Assembly (NCBI GenBank): GCA_965204835.1
Contig: OZ242017.1
Span: forward strand, 290,336 to 354,335
Length of the DNA: 64,000 nt
Reading direction: 5' to 3'
From: Dehalococcoidia bacterium
Lineage (GTDB): Bacteria > Chloroflexota > Dehalococcoidia > UBA2979
The translations under genes and the position numbers were made by a program. Under the pieces are notes generated by a model that saw only the letters and a list, made by a program, of their open reading frames with translations, was not told the DNA's origin and searched no databases. Of the stretch, positions 13,854 through 63,075 are shown piece after piece. Numbering within the stretch: position 1 is the stretch's first letter; the number at the start of each line of letters is the position of its first letter.

Positions 13854-14755
13854 GCGCCGCCCTCCCCGTCCGCCGCGTCGGCCGGGCCCCAGTATCGGTC
13901 GACGAGCAGCGCGAGGCGCTGTCTCGTCCCGGCCGGGACCTGGTGCGGCGCGCTCATCAGCGCCGACGCGAGTGCGTCGTTGCACTCGCAGGCGCGCTCG
14001 CCCGCGAGCCCCTCGATGGCCGCGGCGAGGATCGCGCGGGCGCGGTCGGTGTTCTCGCGCAGCACGCGCAGCACGAGGTCGGCGCTCACGTCCTCCTCGT
14101 GCTCGTGCCAGACGTCGTAGTCGGTGACGAAGCAGATCGAGGCGTAGCAGAGCTCGGCCTCGCGGGCGAGGCGCGCCTCGGGCAGCGCCGTCATGCCGAC
14201 GATGTCCGCGCCCCACGAGCGGAACAGCTCGGACTCCGCGCGCGTCGAGAACGCCGGGCCCTCGATGACCACCAGGGTGCCGCCCTCGTGCGCCGTCACG
14301 CCCACGCCGAGCGCGGCGGTGGCGAGGTGCTGCGAGAGCGGCGCACAGAACGGGTCGGCCAGCCCGACGTGCGCGACGAGGCCGTCACCGAAGAAGCTCG
14401 GCGGCCGTCCCCGCGTGCGGTCGATGAGCTGGTCCGGCACCACGGCGTGCCCCGGCTCGATGTGCTGCTGTAGCGACCCGACCGCGGAGGCCGCGAGGAG
14501 CTGCCCGACGCCGAGCTGGCGGAAGCCGTGGATGTTGGCGCGCGCCGGCAGCTCGTGCGGCAGGATCGTGTGCCCCTCGCCGTGACGGGCGAGGAAGGCC
14601 ACGCGCTTCCCGCCGAGCGAGCCCACGATGTACGGCCCGCTCGGCTTGCCGAACGGCGTGTCAAGCTCGACGCGCTCGGGCGCCTCGATGGCATCGAGGG
14701 CGTAGAAGCCGGAGCCGCCGATGACGCCGATGTCGGCCGTCGCGCTCACGATCAC
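13850..14755 (-). CDS. mtnP: S-methyl-5-prime-thioadenosine phosphorylase
   Basis: 301 aa. ...IGVIGGSGFY...FGKPSGP...VAFLARHG.GH...P.ELP.RANI....LGV..L...SAVGSL....PG, typical MTAP/PNP family. Confidence 0.9.
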
Positions 14756-14776: not shown

Positions 14777-15310
14777 CTAGACGATCGAGTCACTCTTCTG
14801 CCGGTTGCAGTCTCCACACAGCACCTGGACGTTGTCGATGGTGTTGCCGCCGCCCTTCGCCACGGGGATGACGTGGTCGAACTGCAGGTCGTCCTCGGCG
14901 CTGCACTGTACACATTGTCCGGCGTCTCGTTCCCACACGAACGCGCGCACCTCGTCCGGGATGCGCTCGCGGCGCGCCTCGGCGACCTCCTCGTCGCGCG
15001 CGCGGATCTTGCGCAGGCGGTCGAGGCGCGCGTCCTGTCGCCGCTGGCGGTCCCACACGAGCAACTCGACGTCCTCGCCGGTGAGGTCGTCGTCGGCCCA
15101 GAACAGGCCCGCGTCCGTCCACCACAGCACGCGGTCACCGTCCTCGCCGATGCGCGCCGCGCCCGACTCGTCGAGTTCGCGCAGGGCGCGCCCGTGCTCG
15201 CCGTACGTCAGGCTGAAGTGCCGGGACTGCGAGGTGAAGAAGCGCCAGCTCGAGAAGATCCAGAAGCCGGACTGCTCGATGCGCCCGCTGCTCACCTTGC
15301 GCAGGCTCAC
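14777..15310 (-). CDS. HNH endonuclease domain protein
   Basis: 177 aa. C-terminal ...CVQCSAEDDLQFDHVIPVAKGGGNTIDNVQVLCGDCNRQK (HNH with CxxC...CxxC zinc knuckle). N-terminal about 110 aa has no recognisable motif. Confidence 0.8.
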   Translation of the reverse strand: MSLRKVSSGRIEQSGFWIFSSWRFFTSQSRHFSLTYGEHGRALRELDESGAARIGEDGDRVLWWTDAGLFWADDDLTGEDVELLVWDRQRRQDARLDRLRKIRARDEEVAEARRERIPDEVRAFVWERDAGQCVQCSAEDDLQFDHVIPVAKGGGNTIDNVQVLCGDCNRQKSDSIV

Positions 15311-15334
15311 TGCTGCCCCCTCATGGGCGCCCCC

Positions 15335-16426
15335 TCACGACGCCGCCTCGACGCCCACGGCCGACGCCGCCGCGACGGCAGACGCGATCGAGGGGCCGTA
15401 GGGCGCGCGTAGCACCCCCTGCTCCGTCACGATCGCGTCGATCAGCTCCGCCGGGGTCACGTCGAACGCCGGGTTGAGCGCCCGCGCGCCGGGCGCCACG
15501 AGGTCCGCGCCGCCCGGGCGCAGCACCTCGTCCTCGGCGCGCTCCTCGATGGGGATCGAGGCGCCGTCGGGCGTGTGGGGGTCGAGGGTGGAGACGGGCG
15601 CGACGATGTAGAACGGGATGCCGTGGTGGCGGGCGAGCGCCGCGAGCATGTACGTGCCGATCTTGTTGGCGGTGTCGCCGTTGGCGGCGACGCGGTCGGC
15701 GCCCGTGACGACGGCCGTGACGCGGCCGGCAGCCATCAGCGACGCTGCCGCGCCCTCGACGACGAGCCGGAACGGCACGACGTGCCGTTGCAGCTCCCAC
15801 GCCGTCAGGCGCGCGCCCTGCAGCCGCGGGCGCGTCTCGCACGCGAGCACCTCGGTGAGCCGCCCGCTGCGCCACCCCTCGACGATGACGCCGAGGGCGG
15901 TGCCGCCGCCCGCGGTGGCGAGCGGGCCGGTGTTGCAGAGCGTCATCACGCGCGTGGCGGGCGGGAACAGCGCCGCGCCGAGTTCCGCCATGCGGGCGTC
16001 GGCGGCGTGCTGCTCCGCGTGGATCGCACGCGCCTCGTCGAGCGCGACGGCGCGCGCCTCGTCGTCGTTCGACGCACCCGCGACCCGGGCGGCGACGCGG
16101 TCCAGCGCCCAGCGCAGGTTCACGGCGGTCGGGCGCGTCGTGCCGAGCACCCGCGCGGCCTCCTCGACGGCCGCGACGACGCCGGACGGCGTCGAGGCGG
16201 CGGTGACGGCGAGCGCGTAGGCGGCGGTCACGCCGATGGCCGGCGCGCCGCGCACGCGCATGGTGGTGATGGCCTCGGCGGCGGCCTCGACGGTGTCGAG
16301 GGGGATGTAGCGCTCCTCGGCGGGGAGCAGGGTCTGGTCGAGGAGCCACAGCCGCCCCTCGCGCCACGCGACGGGCTCGTAGGGCTCACGGGTGGATGCG
16401 GCGTCGGGCGCCCGTGCCATGCACAC
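15335..16426 (-). CDS. mtnA: Methylthioribose-1-phosphate isomerase
   Basis: 363 aa. ...LLDQTLLP.EE.Y......V..AI..M.VRGAPAIGV.AAY..., ...GADRVAANGDTANKIGTY, eIF-2B/MtnA family. The start could be the second ATG at 16420. Confidence 0.9.
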   Translation of the reverse strand: MCMARAPDAASTREPYEPVAWREGRLWLLDQTLLPAEERYIPLDTVEAAAEAITTMRVRGAPAIGVTAAYALAVTAASTPSGVVAAVEEAARVLGTTRPTAVNLRWALDRVAARVAGASNDDEARAVALDEARAIHAEQHAADARMAELGAALFPPATRVMTLCNTGPLATAGGGTALGVIVEGWRSGRLTEVLACETRPRLQGARLTAWELQRHVVPFRLVVEGAAASLMAAGRVTAVVTGADRVAANGDTANKIGTYMLAALARHHGIPFYIVAPVSTLDPHTPDGASIPIEERAEDEVLRPGGADLVAPGARALNPAFDVTPAELIDAIVTEQGVLRAPYGPSIASAVAAASAVGVEAAS

Positions 16427-16527
16427 ATGGTAGAGCGCGAGGGCCGCCGGTGGCAGCCGGTACTACCTTGACGCGCTGGGGAGAGCGCAGGAGCATTTGA
16501 GTCAGGCTGGCGATCAGGCGGGTCCCT

Positions 16528-16785
16528 ATGGCGCGCTCCACCCCGACCATCACGTTCTCGCTCCCGGCCGAGCTGTCGGAACGGCTCGACGCGCTCGCCA
16601 GCCGCGACTCCCGCACGCGGGCCGCCATCATTCGTGAGGCACTCACGCGCTACATCGAGGAAGCGGAATGGCGCGACCTGCTCGAGTACGGGCGCGAACG
16701 CGCGCGGGAGCTGGGAATCAGGCCCGACGACGTCCCGCGTCTGATCGCCGAGTATCGCGCGGAAGTGAAAATCAGCCGCGAGTGA
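16528..16785 (+). CDS. Ribbon-helix-helix (CopG/antitoxin-like) DNA-binding protein
   Basis: 85 aa. N-terminal beta-strand plus two helices: TITFSLPAELSERLDALASRDSRTRAAIIREALTRYI. Confidence 0.65.
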   Translation: MARSTPTITFSLPAELSERLDALASRDSRTRAAIIREALTRYIEEAEWRDLLEYGRERARELGIRPDDVPRLIAEYRAEVKISRE

Positions 16786-18673: not shown

Positions 18674-19003
18674 CTACGGAGCAGCCTGCTCGGCGGGCTC
18701 GGTCTCGATGTCGTCCTCGGCGCCGAATCCGGCCGCGCCGGGTGCGAAGCGCCACCACAGCTTCATCGAGTCGCGGAGCGCGGCGATGCGCTCCGGGCTG
18801 TCGTCCTCGGCGAGGCAGCGCTCGAGGTGGGTGTCGAGGATGAGCGCGCCGGCGGTGTCGATGCCGGAGCGCACGGCCATGAGCTGGGTGACGATGTCCT
18901 CGCAGGCGCGGTCGTTCTCGATCATGCGGGCGATGCCGCGGATCTGGCCCTCGATGCGCCGGAGGCGGGCGCCGACCTGGTCGGATGTTGCCGAGTCGCT
19001 CAT
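18674..19003 (-). CDS. csoR: CsoR-family metal-sensing transcriptional repressor (Cu-type C-H-C fingerprint)
   Basis: 109 aa from ATG 19003. RLRRIEGQIRGIARMIENDRACEDI...DTHLERC gives Cys, then His-x3-Cys ligand spacing. The track ORF 18674-19243 is over-extended. Confidence 0.85.
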   Translation of the reverse strand: MSDSATSDQVGARLRRIEGQIRGIARMIENDRACEDIVTQLMAVRSGIDTAGALILDTHLERCLAEDDSPERIAALRDSMKLWWRFAPGAAGFGAEDDIETEPAEQAAP

Positions 19004-19273: not shown

Positions 19274-19600
19274 ATGGCAGCACCGACCGACACCTCAGAC
19301 ACCACCTTCAGCTCCGACGTGCTGGAGCACGACACCCCGGTCCTGGTCGACTTCTGGGCGCCGTGGTGCGGGCCGTGCCGCATGGTCGCCCCCATCGTCG
19401 AGGAGCTCGCCGAGGACTACGACGGCCGCGTCAAGTTCGTGAAGCTCAACACCGACGAGAACCCGATGGTCGCGGGCCAGTACGGCATCCGCTCGATCCC
19501 CACGCTGCTCGTCTTCAAGGGTGGCGAGAAGGTCGGCGAGATCATCGGCTTCCGCCCCAAGGGCGACCTCTCCAAGCGCCTCGACGAGGCGCTCGCCTAG
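19274..19600 (+). CDS. trxA: Thioredoxin
   Basis: 108 aa. ...[18 protein letters not shown]..., [22 protein letters not shown] upstream. Confidence 0.96.
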
Positions 19601-20343: not shown

Positions 20344-20787
20344 TCAGTCCTTGCGGATGATGCGGCCCTGCTTCTTCTCGAGGCGGGCCAGGGCGCGCCC
20401 CTTGTCGGGGTGCGGGTCCTTCACGAGGCCGTAGATCTCGCGGCCTTCGTGGTCTTCTGGGAGGTACTCGGTGATGGGAAGACCTTCCTCATTACAGAAG
20501 AGCAGTCAGTGGCAGTACTTGTATTTCTGCATCTCCTCGCAGGCGCAGATCCACGTCGAGCGCTTCACCTCTGCTTCCTTGTCCTCGTAGAAGTTGCAGG
20601 GACACAGCGGGCGGCCGAGGTCGTCGACGTGCTTGGCGAGCCCGATCACGAGGAACTCGGTGATCTCGCGCTGCGGGTGGAGGTACGTGCCGCTCTTCTC
20701 GGCGAACTTCTCGACGAACTTCCACATCCGCTGCATGGACTTCTCGGACGCCTCCGCGCGGTCGGCGTCGGTTGGCTGTTCGAGCAC
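20344..20787 (-). CDS. Ferredoxin:thioredoxin reductase catalytic-subunit homolog with in-frame UGA (candidate selenocysteine) at the CHC active-site cysteine
   Basis: GTG 20787 with GGGAG SD. ...GLAKHVDDLGRPLCPCNFYEDKEAEVKRSTWICACEEMQKYKYCH-[TGA 20508..20506]-LLFCNEEGLPITEY...RIIRKD, then TGA 20346..20344. The motif CPC-x16-CxC-x8-CH[U] matches the FTRc spacing CPC-x16-CPC-x8-CHC. The frame stays open 53 codons past the UGA. A tRNA-Sec lies in the same window. Confidence 0.75.
20472..20491 (-). promoter_or_regulatory. SECIS-like hairpin downstream of the FTRc UGA
   Basis: RNA UGAGGAAGGUCUUCCCAUCA begins 14 nt after the UGA. Stem GGAA/UUCC extends through UG/CA with one bulged A. Apical tetraloop is GGUC. 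Folded by eye only. Confidence 0.4.
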
Positions 20788-24931: not shown

Positions 24932-25028
24932 GGGAGTGGATGGTGTCCGGTGGCGCCCGCGGTCTTCAAAACCGTTGTGGGGCTGCGTCGCAGTCCCGGG
25001 TGGGTTCGACCCCCACGCACTCCCGCCA
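24932..25028 (+). tRNA. selC: tRNA-Sec (anticodon UCA), CCA encoded
   Basis: 97 nt. Acceptor GGGAGTG(G)/(G)CACTCCC with discriminator G and CCA. 6-bp D-stem GGTGTC/GGCGCC with 4-nt loop. Anticodon loop CUUCAAA (TCA at 24966-24968). Long variable arm GGGGCUGC...GCAGUCCC. T-arm GTGGG-TTCGACC-CCCAC. Aligns block by block with E. coli selC recalled from memory. Confidence 0.9.
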
Positions 25029-59846: not shown

Positions 59847-60686
59847 CTACTCCAGCGTGAGCGGCGTGTCCTCGCGGTTCGCCCACTCGCCCATCGAGCC
59901 GTCGTAGTTGCGTGCGCGGTCGTTGCCGAGCATGCGCAGGACGAAGGCCGCGAACGCGGCCCTGATGCCACCCTGTCAGTAGGTGACGGTCGCCACCTCC
60001 GGGTCGATCCCCGCGCCCTCGATCAGCTCCCGGATCTCGTCGAGGGGCCGGAAGCGGCGTGACGGCGGCCCCTGCATGAGCCGCAGCCACTCGAGGTGCT
60101 TCGCGCCCGGCACGTGGCCGGCGCGCTGGTTGCCGCGGTCGTTCGAGCCGTCCCACTCGCCGTCGGAGCGCGTGTCCCAGATCTGCGGTGCGTCCGGCGC
60201 GTCGAGGCCAGCCTCGACGATCGCCATAAGCTCGTCGACCGTGCAGTGCGCGCCGCGGTCCACGCGCGCCTCGAACGTCGCGGGCGCGGGGCGCGCGGGC
60301 GCCGAGGTGAGCGGGCGGCCCTCGTGCAGCCAGGCGTTGAGGCCGCCGTCGACGACGCGCACGTCGCGGTGGCCGAAGTGCTCGAAGACCCACCACACGC
60401 GCGCGGCGTGCAGCGAGGCGTTGTCGTCGTAGATGACGACGGGCGTGTCGTTGGAGATGCCGAGGCGGCCCATGAGGGCCTCGAACTCCGGCGGGGTCAT
60501 GACCAGGCGGCTGTTCTCGCGGCCCTTGAGGTAGGGGTGGGGGAGCCCGACGGAGCCGGGGATGTGCGCGCGCCGGTAGGCGACCGCCTCCCCGGCGTCG
60601 ATGAGCGCGAAGTCCGTGCCGACGCCGTCGAGGTGGTCGGCGAGCCAGTCGGTGGTGGTGAGCAGCTCGGACTGCGCGGTCGTCAT
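59847..60686 (-). CDS. Two-domain rhodanese (thiosulfate/3-mercaptopyruvate sulfurtransferase-like) with in-frame UGA (candidate selenocysteine) at the catalytic cysteine
   Basis: ATG 60686 with GAGGAGG SD. ...RRAHIPGS... (domain 1), ...RAGHVPGAKHLEW...DPEVATVTY-[TGA 59978..59976]-QGGIRAAFAAFVLRMLGNDRARNYDGSMGEWANREDTPLTLE, then TAG 59849..59847. The UGA sits where the active-site loop C-x-x-G-x-R-(A/S) starts. The downstream 42 codons are the expected end of a rhodanese domain. Confidence 0.78.
59944..59963 (-). promoter_or_regulatory. SECIS-like hairpin downstream of the rhodanese UGA
   Basis: RNA AGGGCCGC-GUUC-GCGGCCUU: 6 GC pairs plus G-U and A-U closing pairs, GUUC tetraloop. It starts 12 nt after the UGA. 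Folded by eye only. Confidence 0.45.
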
Positions 60687-61666: not shown

Positions 61667-62914
61667 CTACGGGCCGCGACCCGCGAAGATCGCGGGCGGG
61701 AACGCGGGCTCGACGTCGTCGGGGATGCCCTCGCGGATCGCGCGCTCCACCGTCTCGGCGGCGAGGTCCACCTCGGCCTCGGTGTTGAAGGCGTGCAGCG
61801 AGAGCCGCACGCTGTTGAACTCCGCCACCGACCGGCACACGACCCGGGCCTCGGCCTGCAGGAAGGCGTTCACGTCGGCCGCCGGCAGGTCGTCGACCAC
61901 GAAGCAGAACAGCCCCGTGCGCGTCGAGTCGTGGCGAGGGCTCACCACGCTCACGCCCTCGATGCGCCCGAAGCGCTGCTCGGCGTAGCGGTTGAGCTCC
62001 TGCGCGCGGGCGAGGACCGCCTCGGGGCCGGAGTCGAGGAACCACTCGGCGGCCTCGAGCGTACCGGCGATGAGCGGCGTCGAGGTCGTCGTGAGCTCGT
62101 ACTTGGTGATGCGCTCGCGCTCCGGCTCGAAGTTGCCCGCGAAGTCGTACGAGGCCGCCGCACGGCCCGCGACCTTCGCCGGCTCGACGAGCGGGATGAG
62201 GTCCTCGCGGATGTAGAGCGCTCCGAGGCCGTCCGGCCCGCACAGCCACTTGTGCGAGGGGATCGCGTAGAAGTCGACGTTCGTCGCGCGCACGTCGATG
62301 GGGATGTGCCCGGCGGTCTGCGCGCCGTCGACCACCACGTGGCCGCCGCGGCGGTGGGTCTCCTCGACGATCGTGCCGAGGGGCAGGAGCTGGCCGGTCG
62401 AGTACGAGATCTCGGAGAGGATGACGAGCTTGATGTTCCCGCTCGCCGCGTCCATCGCCGAGACGAACGACTCCATCGCCGCGCCGGGCGAGTCCTGCGC
62501 GTCGATGGGCACGATGGCCACCTCGCAGCCCGTGCGCTCGCGCAGGTAGTAGGCGGGGACGATGCCGGAGCCGTGCTCGACGTCGGTGGTGACGATGGTG
62601 TCGGCGGAGGTCACCTCGAGGCCGTTGGTGATGACGTTGATGCCCTCGGTGGTGTTGCCGGTGATGGCGATCTCGTCGGGCGATGCGCCGCCGACGAGGC
62701 GGCCCATCACCTCGCGGTAGCGCCCGGCGAGGTCGAAGCGGTCATCGAGGGCGTGGCGGGTGGTCGAACCGTGCATGAGTTCGAGGTCGAGGCGCTGCTG
62801 GACGGCCTCGTGGGTGGCGCGGCGCTTGGGGCCGGAGAAGCCGGAGTTCATGTACGCGTACTCGATGAGTGCGGGCGTGTCGTCGCGCCACGCCTGCCAG
62901 CGCTCGTTGCTCAT
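61667..62914 (-). CDS. Class V aminotransferase-fold PLP enzyme (cysteine desulfurase / selenocysteine lyase-like)
   Basis: 415 aa from ATG 62914. ...ITGNTTEGIN..., ...VVDGAQTAGHIPIDV...DFYAIPSHKWLCGP.G.G.LY (PLP Lys), C-terminal ...VRLSLHAFNTEAEVD. Confidence 0.82.
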   Translation of the reverse strand: MSNERWQAWRDDTPALIEYAYMNSGFSGPKRRATHEAVQQRLDLELMHGSTTRHALDDRFDLAGRYREVMGRLVGGASPDEIAITGNTTEGINVITNGLEVTSADTIVTTDVEHGSGIVPAYYLRERTGCEVAIVPIDAQDSPGAAMESFVSAMDAASGNIKLVILSEISYSTGQLLPLGTIVEETHRRGGHVVVDGAQTAGHIPIDVRATNVDFYAIPSHKWLCGPDGLGALYIREDLIPLVEPAKVAGRAAASYDFAGNFEPERERITKYELTTTSTPLIAGTLEAAEWFLDSGPEAVLARAQELNRYAEQRFGRIEGVSVVSPRHDSTRTGLFCFVVDDLPAADVNAFLQAEARVVCRSVAEFNSVRLSLHAFNTEAEVDLAAETVERAIREGIPDDVEPAFPPAIFAGRGP

Positions 62915-63075
62915 GCAGCCGCCTCCGTCGCATGTCCCGATCGTGGCCCCTCGCGTCCGAGGTGCTCGTGCGAGTCTACCGCGAGCAGGCGCAGTGGGCC
63001 GCACGACGAGCCGCGAGCGGCGGGGGGCGCGGCCCTATGATGGCGGCGAGGCAGTGACGGGTGAGGGAGGCTGGC

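Follow-up and report, generated by a model that had tools for sequence, protein, structure and literature searches.

Does a UGA codon inside a gene for the catalytic subunit of ferredoxin:thioredoxin reductase (FTR) end the protein, or is it read as selenocysteine (Sec)? The question is raised by a stretch of 64,000 nucleotides (nt) from a Dehalococcoidia bacterium (contig OZ242017.1, positions 290,336 to 354,335), here called the window, in which a preliminary description had noticed an FTR catalytic subunit (FTRc) gene with TGA at the codon of its last catalytic cysteine. Our analysis, which is comparative, suggests that the gene at 20787..20344 on the minus strand very probably encodes a Sec-decoded FTRc homologue of 147 residues with the motifs CPC...CAC...CHU. 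Selenium insertion and cluster binding in this protein we infer only, by analogy with characterized systems.

The interrupted FTRc gene and its homologues

The gene, a homologue of FtrB/FeThRed_B, starts at GTG 20787, which is preceded by a ribosome-binding-like GGGAG motif 6 nt upstream, and has 147 codons up to TGA 20346..20344. From the GTG, the minus-strand frame reads ...LCPCNFYEDKEAEVKRSTWICACEEMQKYKYCH and then meets TGA 20508..20506, the translated residues in front of this codon being ...GRPLCPCNFYEDKEAEVKRSTWICACEEMQKYKYCH; 53 further sense codons (LLFCNEEGLPITEYLPEDHEGREIYGLVKDPHPDKGRALARLEKKQGRIIRKD) follow, with LLFCNEEGLPITEYLPEDHEGR as a tail stretch encoded beyond residue 94. 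The frame is thus present as the preliminary description had set it out. The motif spacing CPC-x16-CAC-x8-CH-TGA is exact, as had also been claimed, and five Cys of the six-residue FTRc motif are present, with UGA at the sixth position. This UGA (20506..20508, residue 94), which we read as Sec, occupies the place of Cys87, the second Cys of CHC, when the protein is aligned to solved FTR structures of Synechocystis, in agreement with the replacement proposed earlier. The Cys codons of the first motif, CPC, are TGC/TGT, the gene contains a single UGA, and the active-site His of FTRc is kept. The tail after the UGA has no internal Met and no obvious restart.

With the UGA read as Cys, the protein scores 85.4 bits (E 3e-24) on the Pfam PF02943 (FeThRed_B) profile, whose cutoff is 22. 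Searching about 5.8 billion proteins gave about 2,500 matches, and the best full-length ones have 147–167 residues and at most 83% identity, covering 98–100% of the query with the tail included. Full-length Cys homologues in the aligned set are 60–78% identical across all 147 residues; they align both over the UGA and through the 53 residues beyond it, which is the comparison that the preliminary description had proposed. All 24 aligned full-length homologues have Cys in the UGA column (KYCHC-LLF), and 20 columns of the 53 post-UGA residues are invariant (G102, P104, ITE, LP, HEG, YG, DP, P127, and GR). The same alignment shows that CAC instead of CPC in the middle motif is the rule; of the earlier motif reading the spacing therefore stands, while the middle motif is the norm of the clade and no anomaly.

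The fold prediction is consistent with an FTRc. The AlphaFold2 model of the window protein has pLDDT 80 and pTM 0.74, with pLDDT 81–83 for tail residues 101–130, and superposes on 1dj7_A with a root mean square deviation (rmsd) of 2.3 Å over 88 columns. The top 10 Foldseek matches in the PDB are all FTRc, with target-normalised template modelling (TM) scores of 0.67–0.71, and the structures 7pwe and 4tpu, of ferredoxin-dependent disulfide reductases (FDRs), come far behind. By sequence, the core aligns without gaps to the catalytic chains of FTR from Synechocystis and Arabidopsis (E 4e-23, 42% identity). This alignment stops at LLFCNE, suggesting that the C-terminal tail is specific to the clade of the window protein.

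When one genome per GTDB species was scanned with the pattern AAR TAY TGY CAY TGA NTN YTN TTY (KYCH-TGA-xLF), at least 120 loci were obtained (numbered L001–L120). Of these, at least 89, from about 88 species-representative genomes, are FTRc genes that have TGA at this position and a conserved read-through, so that orthologues of the kind the preliminary description had asked about do exist. Nearly all of these Sec-type loci come from metagenome-assembled genomes (MAGs) of Dehalococcoidia/Chloroflexota, several of which are complete long-read chromosomes, and a few come from Entotheonella. The recurrence of TGA in this column, as seen in the sequences, points to more than chance. The nearest relative of the window is L113 (Chloroflexi bacterium SB0666_bin_12), with 85–90% nucleotide identity and identical gene order. 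Across the Sec-type loci, diversity in codons 12–40 after the UGA is 0.22, 0.16, and 0.50 at codon positions 1, 2, and 3, and the tails of the window and L113 differ by four synonymous and no nonsynonymous codons. This mostly third-position variation indicates that the tail is translated and, as judged from the codon pattern, that all 53 codons are under purifying selection.

Gene calling on the source contig leaves 190 nt past the UGA unannotated, and public databases hold the gene as truncated products of 83–95 residues in five clusters of 75–187 members, under the names 'ferredoxin-thioredoxin reductase catalytic chain', 'catalytic domain-containing protein', and 'ferredoxin--nitrite reductase'. 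The earlier expectation that automated annotation would give a truncated protein of 93 residues is borne out, as exactly this product is found in databases and gene calls, on three independently assembled contigs. A 2.93-Mb ENA contig (ERZ25068475 contig_1) carries it, and the window maps there near 1.08–1.10 Mb. The best full-length database match is only 83% identical, although NCBI genomes contain relatives with ~98% protein identity. In hundreds of database entries, the product of the gene ends at the UGA and lacks the last catalytic residue and the conserved 53-residue tail. The 'ferredoxin--nitrite reductase' misnaming occurs in some NCBI MAG records of truncated 95-residue FTRc, e.g. 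MCY4618455.1 and MDE2896544.1, and RefSeq WP_256872953.1 ('catalytic domain-containing protein') is an 83-residue truncated form from Entotheonella.

A hairpin after the UGA and a nearby tRNA-Sec gene

Bacterial selenocysteine insertion sequences (SECIS), e.g. that of Escherichia coli fdhF, are hairpins just 3′ of the UGA with a bulged upper-stem nucleotide and G/U in the apical loop. A SECIS-like hairpin is found at 20468..20498 on the minus strand of the window, starting 13 nt past the UGA, and its GGUC apical loop (20484..20481, 21 nt past the UGA) is the one reported in the preliminary description. The upper stem pairs 20492..20485 with 20480..20474 around a bulged A 20489 and is well supported: below the bulge it contains A20492–U20474, U20491–A20475, and G20490–C20476, and above it G20488–C20477, G20487–C20478, A20486–U20479, and A20485–U20480. 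Support for the lower stem (20498–20494 with 20472–20468) is weaker. In all Sec-type genes, the hairpin lies within the codons for N/D-E/S-E-G-L-P-I.

RNAalifold on the ungapped alignment gave almost nothing, because the bulge shifts the register between subgroups; explicit pair counts were used instead in two registers, of which register A, bulged at column 20, gives the better fit. Among 79 distinct orthologous sequences, which are related to one another, 81.4% of cells are paired, compared to 25–54% when the partners are slid by 1–3 columns. Pair 19–33 is GC in 45 sequences, UG in 21, and CG in 8, the change of the codon GAG to UCG/CCG being matched by Pro CCC to CCG, and pair 23–30 is AU in 55 and CG in 6. 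The covariation score is 0.143 versus 0.072 in shuffles, and none of 500 shuffles reaches the observed value.

As a matched control, TGY was put in place of TGA in the pattern, and 120 metagenome loci of this kind (L121–L240) yielded 98 distinct Cys-type genes, in all of which the UGA column is Cys (TGY). The GGUC loop is present in 86% of the UGA forms and in 8% of the Cys forms, and the minimum free energy of the 21-nt core is -6.6 kcal/mol in UGA forms versus -3.2 kcal/mol in Cys forms (Mann–Whitney p about 1e-24). In the 11 codons that follow the UGA of the window gene, the GC content at third codon positions (GC3) is as low as 0.55, with hairpin codons ending in A/U, compared to 0.93 in the remainder of the gene, which points to a constraint at the RNA level. 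The likeness to the E. coli fdhF-type SECIS thus consists in a coding-region hairpin 3′ of the UGA with a one-nt bulge in the upper stem; in contrast to that element, the window hairpin is short and thermodynamically weak (-6.1 kcal/mol). An Rfam scan of the window found no family that covers it.

The preliminary description had also pointed to a tRNA-Sec gene, and this gene (selC, anticodon TCA, 24932..25028 on the plus strand) was identified by ARAGORN, 4.4 kb from the FTRc UGA. Its match to Rfam RF01852, the sole Rfam match in the window, reaches 73.7 bits (gathering score 47). In four of 60 other genomes (L011, L018, L020, and L049), tRNA-Sec lies at most 8 kb from the Sec-type FTRc gene, where a single-copy gene in a ~3 Mb genome would be expected at this distance by chance in about 0.2. 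In two Dehalococcoidia MAGs, L011 (347–837) and L020 (124–618), tRNA-Sec and the Sec-type FTRc gene are only about 400 nt apart, and flavin monooxygenase-like genes come after the tRNA. A class-V aminotransferase gene at 61667–63034 was considered as SelA and rejected, since it is a SufS/CsdA-like cysteine desulfurase gene.

Several observations weigh against a Sec-decoded FTRc that reduces thioredoxin. The window hairpin taken alone is weak, with a z-score of -0.1 to -0.5 versus shuffled sequence, and because its single-sequence fold is no better than shuffles, support for the hairpin is comparative only; folding of the post-UGA region, a check proposed earlier, is therefore negative for one sequence and positive in the comparison, through covariation and specificity for UGA forms. 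As the Sec-type sequences are interrelated, the statistics for the hairpin, its covariation, and the co-varying residues described below overstate independence. No selA, selB, or selD was found among the large window ORFs scanned, nor beside tRNA-Sec in L011, L018, L020, and L049. On the side of function, thioredoxin linkage is seen in only about 19% of Sec-type loci, and no gene for an FTR variable chain or ferredoxin was called within about 10 kb.

If the TGA were a true stop, the gene would be a pseudogene, contain a sequencing error, or encode a 93-residue protein without its last catalytic residue, as gene callers and public databases have it, and the lack of selA, selB, and selD among the window ORFs scanned would fit. 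Set against this, the same TGA occurs in at least 89 loci of different species, complete long-read chromosomes included, and the exact 93-residue product in independent assemblies; the tail is conserved with third-position-biased variation and offers no Met or obvious restart, the covarying hairpin is specific to TGA forms, and tRNA-Sec is present. We therefore regard a true stop as extremely improbable. The conserved tail could also be accounted for by read-through without selenium, through near-cognate Cys or Trp or a suppressor, to give a full-length non-seleno enzyme. Cys read-through is known for bacterial selenoprotein mRNAs when selenium is limiting. Such read-through is highly improbable here, as it would leave unexplained the hairpin bias between UGA and Cys forms and the tRNA-Sec beside the gene in several genomes, and TGA terminates other genes of the window. 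Reassignment of UGA throughout the genome is rejected on the same ground: TGA is the ordinary stop of many high-GC3 window ORFs, e.g. that of the AdoHcy hydrolase gene, so the codon is not reassigned. Decoding of the UGA as Sec thus remains the preferred explanation.

Relation to known FTRs and proposed mechanism

The preliminary description was unsure whether a Sec-containing FTRc had been reported. The general idea is already published: homologues of the FTR catalytic subunit were described in 2008 as a new selenoprotein family in the Global Ocean Sampling (GOS) metagenome, with two Sec and ten Cys sequences (Zhang & Gladyshev 2008, PMC2398784), and reviews of 2022 and 2026 list Sec-FTR with the motif CxU, the family NF041072, and two Sec (PMC9312934, PMC13188914). 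Those proteins form a different, double-Sec subfamily. The GOS sequence (...YRYCPUMPLSG...KICPCERHHEDIARDGFCIUMFFVSEE..., 104 residues; PMC2398784) shares with the window protein the superfamily COG4802/PF02943, a Sec for the redox Cys at the Cys87 equivalent (CxU), and a predicted bacterial SECIS after the UGA. In contrast, GOS/NF041072 proteins read CPU...CPC...CIU, with both redox Cys replaced by Sec (a diselenide), Ile for the active-site His, and a short tail, whereas the window protein reads CPC...CAC...CHU, with one Sec (and so presumably a selenenylsulfide), the His kept, and 147 residues ending in the conserved 53-residue tail. Sequence identity between the two is only 25%. Membership of the window protein in NF041072 was rejected, as its score of 40.1 bits falls short of the cutoff of 160, which the GOS sequence passes with 187.5, and as it has one UGA and CPC as its first motif. 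A literature search for Sec-FTR in Chloroflexi, Dehalococcoidia, or SAR202 found nothing relevant, and the window clade (single Sec, CHU, His, long tail, Chloroflexota) lies outside the described NF041072 family and is apparently undescribed.

Compared with cyanobacterial and chloroplast FTRc (1dj7, 2pvg, 2puk, and 7bzk), the window protein has the same PLCPC..YEDKEAEVK..W.C.C..CHC.LF core and identical spacing of cluster ligands and redox Cys. The solved enzymes contain all six Cys and a middle CPC, where the window protein has UGA at the sixth position and CAC; its C-terminus after LLF is longer and unrelated, there is no variable-subunit gene nearby, and its host is a Chloroflexota MAG of non-photosynthetic type. 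Remote relatives recovered in the searches are the Methanosarcina acetivorans FDR (4tpu) and a Grx-FDR fusion protein from Desulfotalea psychrophila (7pwe), which are likewise FTRc-like [4Fe-4S] disulfide reductases without a variable chain from non-photosynthetic prokaryotes. They differ in their weak matches (E 1e-6 and 8e-3, TM about 0.4), their rubredoxin or glutaredoxin fusion domains, and their lack of Sec.

By analogy with these systems, we suggest that the window protein is a thioredoxin-reducing [4Fe-4S] enzyme of the FTR type with a single subunit, its donor and substrate being inferred. Thioredoxin is on balance the favoured substrate, and the likely one is encoded close by: a thioredoxin gene with the WCGPC motif (19274..19600, plus strand; Pfam PF00085, 112 bits) is convergent with the FTRc gene at a distance of 0.75 kb. 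In Sec-type loci with enough flank, a thioredoxin orthologue is found within 2 kb downstream in 14 of 74.

The mechanism we propose is modelled on the established one of Synechocystis FTR (Dai et al. 2007, as cited in PMC2398784). By analogy with bacterial SECIS function, the hairpin would recruit SelB and Sec-tRNA(Sec) to the ribosome at the UGA. In the finished protein, C62, C81, C83, and C92 would hold the [4Fe-4S] cluster, and Cys64 and Sec94 would form a selenenylsulfide beside it. One ferredoxin electron would cleave the S–Se bond; the Se atom would then bind the unique Fe, leaving Cys64 to attack a thioredoxin disulfide, probably that of the thioredoxin encoded 0.75 kb away. A second electron would free the selenolate, resolving the mixed disulfide between Cys64 and thioredoxin.

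Sec in thiol oxidoreductases normally takes the attacking position, and a Sec at the cluster-contacting position is therefore unusual. A tentative wider picture is that the single-Sec CHU proteins may be a distinct and undescribed subfamily that is the prevailing FTRc in many Dehalococcoidia/Chloroflexota and occurs also in Entotheonella, in which the [4Fe-4S] cluster would transiently take Se rather than S as its fifth ligand and the attacking residue would still be Cys, with at least ~10 switches between Sec and Cys and a Cys four residues after Sec that is maybe its protein-level partner and not just a product of SECIS constraint.

A genuine selenoprotein could also have another function, acting on a different disulfide substrate (NrdH/glutaredoxin-like or of low molecular weight), as archaeal and deltaproteobacterial FDRs do, or drawing electrons from another source than ferredoxin. 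The last ~50 residues, which differ from those of cyanobacterial and plant FTRc and lie beyond the point where the PDB alignment stops, would agree with this, as would the missing variable-chain gene, the recovery of 4tpu and 7pwe as relatives, and the thioredoxin that is adjacent at a minority of Sec-type loci. We nevertheless consider it unlikely, since the closest solved relatives by E-value, identity, and rmsd are true FTRc, the FDRs match much more weakly (E 1e-6 or worse, Foldseek E>0.1), the recurrent neighbour is a canonical WCGPC thioredoxin, and the active-site His is kept.

To follow the history of the Sec position, core sequences of 87 Sec-type and 95 Cys-type genes were placed on a neighbour-joining tree, in which the Sec forms are spread over several clades (of 40, 13, 13, 6... 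sequences). Parsimony gives at least 10 changes between Sec and Cys with Cys as the root state, a rough count, given a short tree that was not bootstrapped. Among the Cys forms, the one closest to the window protein is 87% identical to it. Two features of the protein go with Sec. A Cys at position +4 after it (U-L-L-F-C; window codon 20494–20496) is present in 63 of 88 Sec forms versus 1 of 98 Cys forms, and CPC as the middle motif in 45 of 88 Sec forms versus 5 of 96 Cys forms. The UGY codon at +4 supplies the G of the lower-stem pair 14–38, which is GC in 56 of 79 sequences, and the link of this Cys to Sec could reflect a constraint on the RNA, a partner of Sec in the protein, or shared ancestry. 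One Sec-type gene, L074 (JANPBN010000499.1), has CPS for CPC as its first motif, a change that would leave Sec without its Cys partner and that could stem from an error in sequencing or from degeneration of this copy.

NF041072, the only curated selenoprotein model for FTR homologues, misses the single-Sec clade, and a model built for this clade would put right the annotation of redox metabolism in Chloroflexota as well as the counts of their selenoproteins. Furthermore, Se at the cluster-contacting position of FTR, with close Cys counterparts (up to 87–95% identical), provides a ready-made comparison pair. Such a pair could address why Sec is selected at a site of one-electron, Fe–S-mediated disulfide cleavage, and the nature of the five-coordinate cluster intermediate, which would be open to 77Se spectroscopy.

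Neighbouring genes and a second candidate selenoprotein

Downstream of the FTRc gene lie an OmdA/YdeI-like gene, the thioredoxin gene, and, adjoining the latter, a gene for a CsoR/RcnR/RicR-family repressor (18674..19003, minus strand; Pfam PF02583, 85.6 bits), whose matches to NCBIfam RicR and FrmR are below the cutoffs. This repressor is found within 2 kb at 12 Sec-type loci, where it recurs with the FTRc–thioredoxin pair, and a regulatory role for it is a guess. Conservation of neighbours was assessed by tblastn of the window's neighbours, as naive ORF clustering was swamped by shadow ORFs at this high GC content. GroES/GroEL (upstream of FTRc), DUF2851, and OmdA were rejected as functional partners, since these neighbours are not conserved. 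No FeThRed_A variable subunit is present among the window ORFs scanned.

The preliminary description had mentioned a second gene with the same anomaly. This is a two-domain gene like those of rhodanese and 3-mercaptopyruvate sulfurtransferase (59847–60686, minus strand, 279 residues), a candidate selenoprotein with TGA 59978..59976 at the active-site Cys, in the loop TVTY-U-QGGIRA. Its best NCBIfam match, PRK11493, scores 118 bits and is below the cutoff. A GC-rich hairpin of 8 bp (59944–59963) follows this UGA, and its GUUC loop starts 21 nt past the codon, a spacing like that in the FTRc gene. The SufS/CsdA-like class-V aminotransferase gene (61667–63034, minus strand) is located one gene upstream on the same strand, and the two may form a pair for sulfur or selenium mobilisation.

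Elsewhere in the window, an IF-2B-family (methylthioribose-1-phosphate isomerase-like) gene at 14777–16462 (minus strand) ends at TGA 15335–15337 and is followed in frame by an HNH endonuclease ORF; this arrangement is probably a coincidence of frame, and gene calls keep two genes. Finally, an RHH_1 and PIN_3 pair at approximately 16098–16591 (plus strand), placed from gene calls at 14197–14690 of L241, sits between a methyltransferase gene and the IF-2B-family gene and is likely a VapBC-type toxin–antitoxin module.

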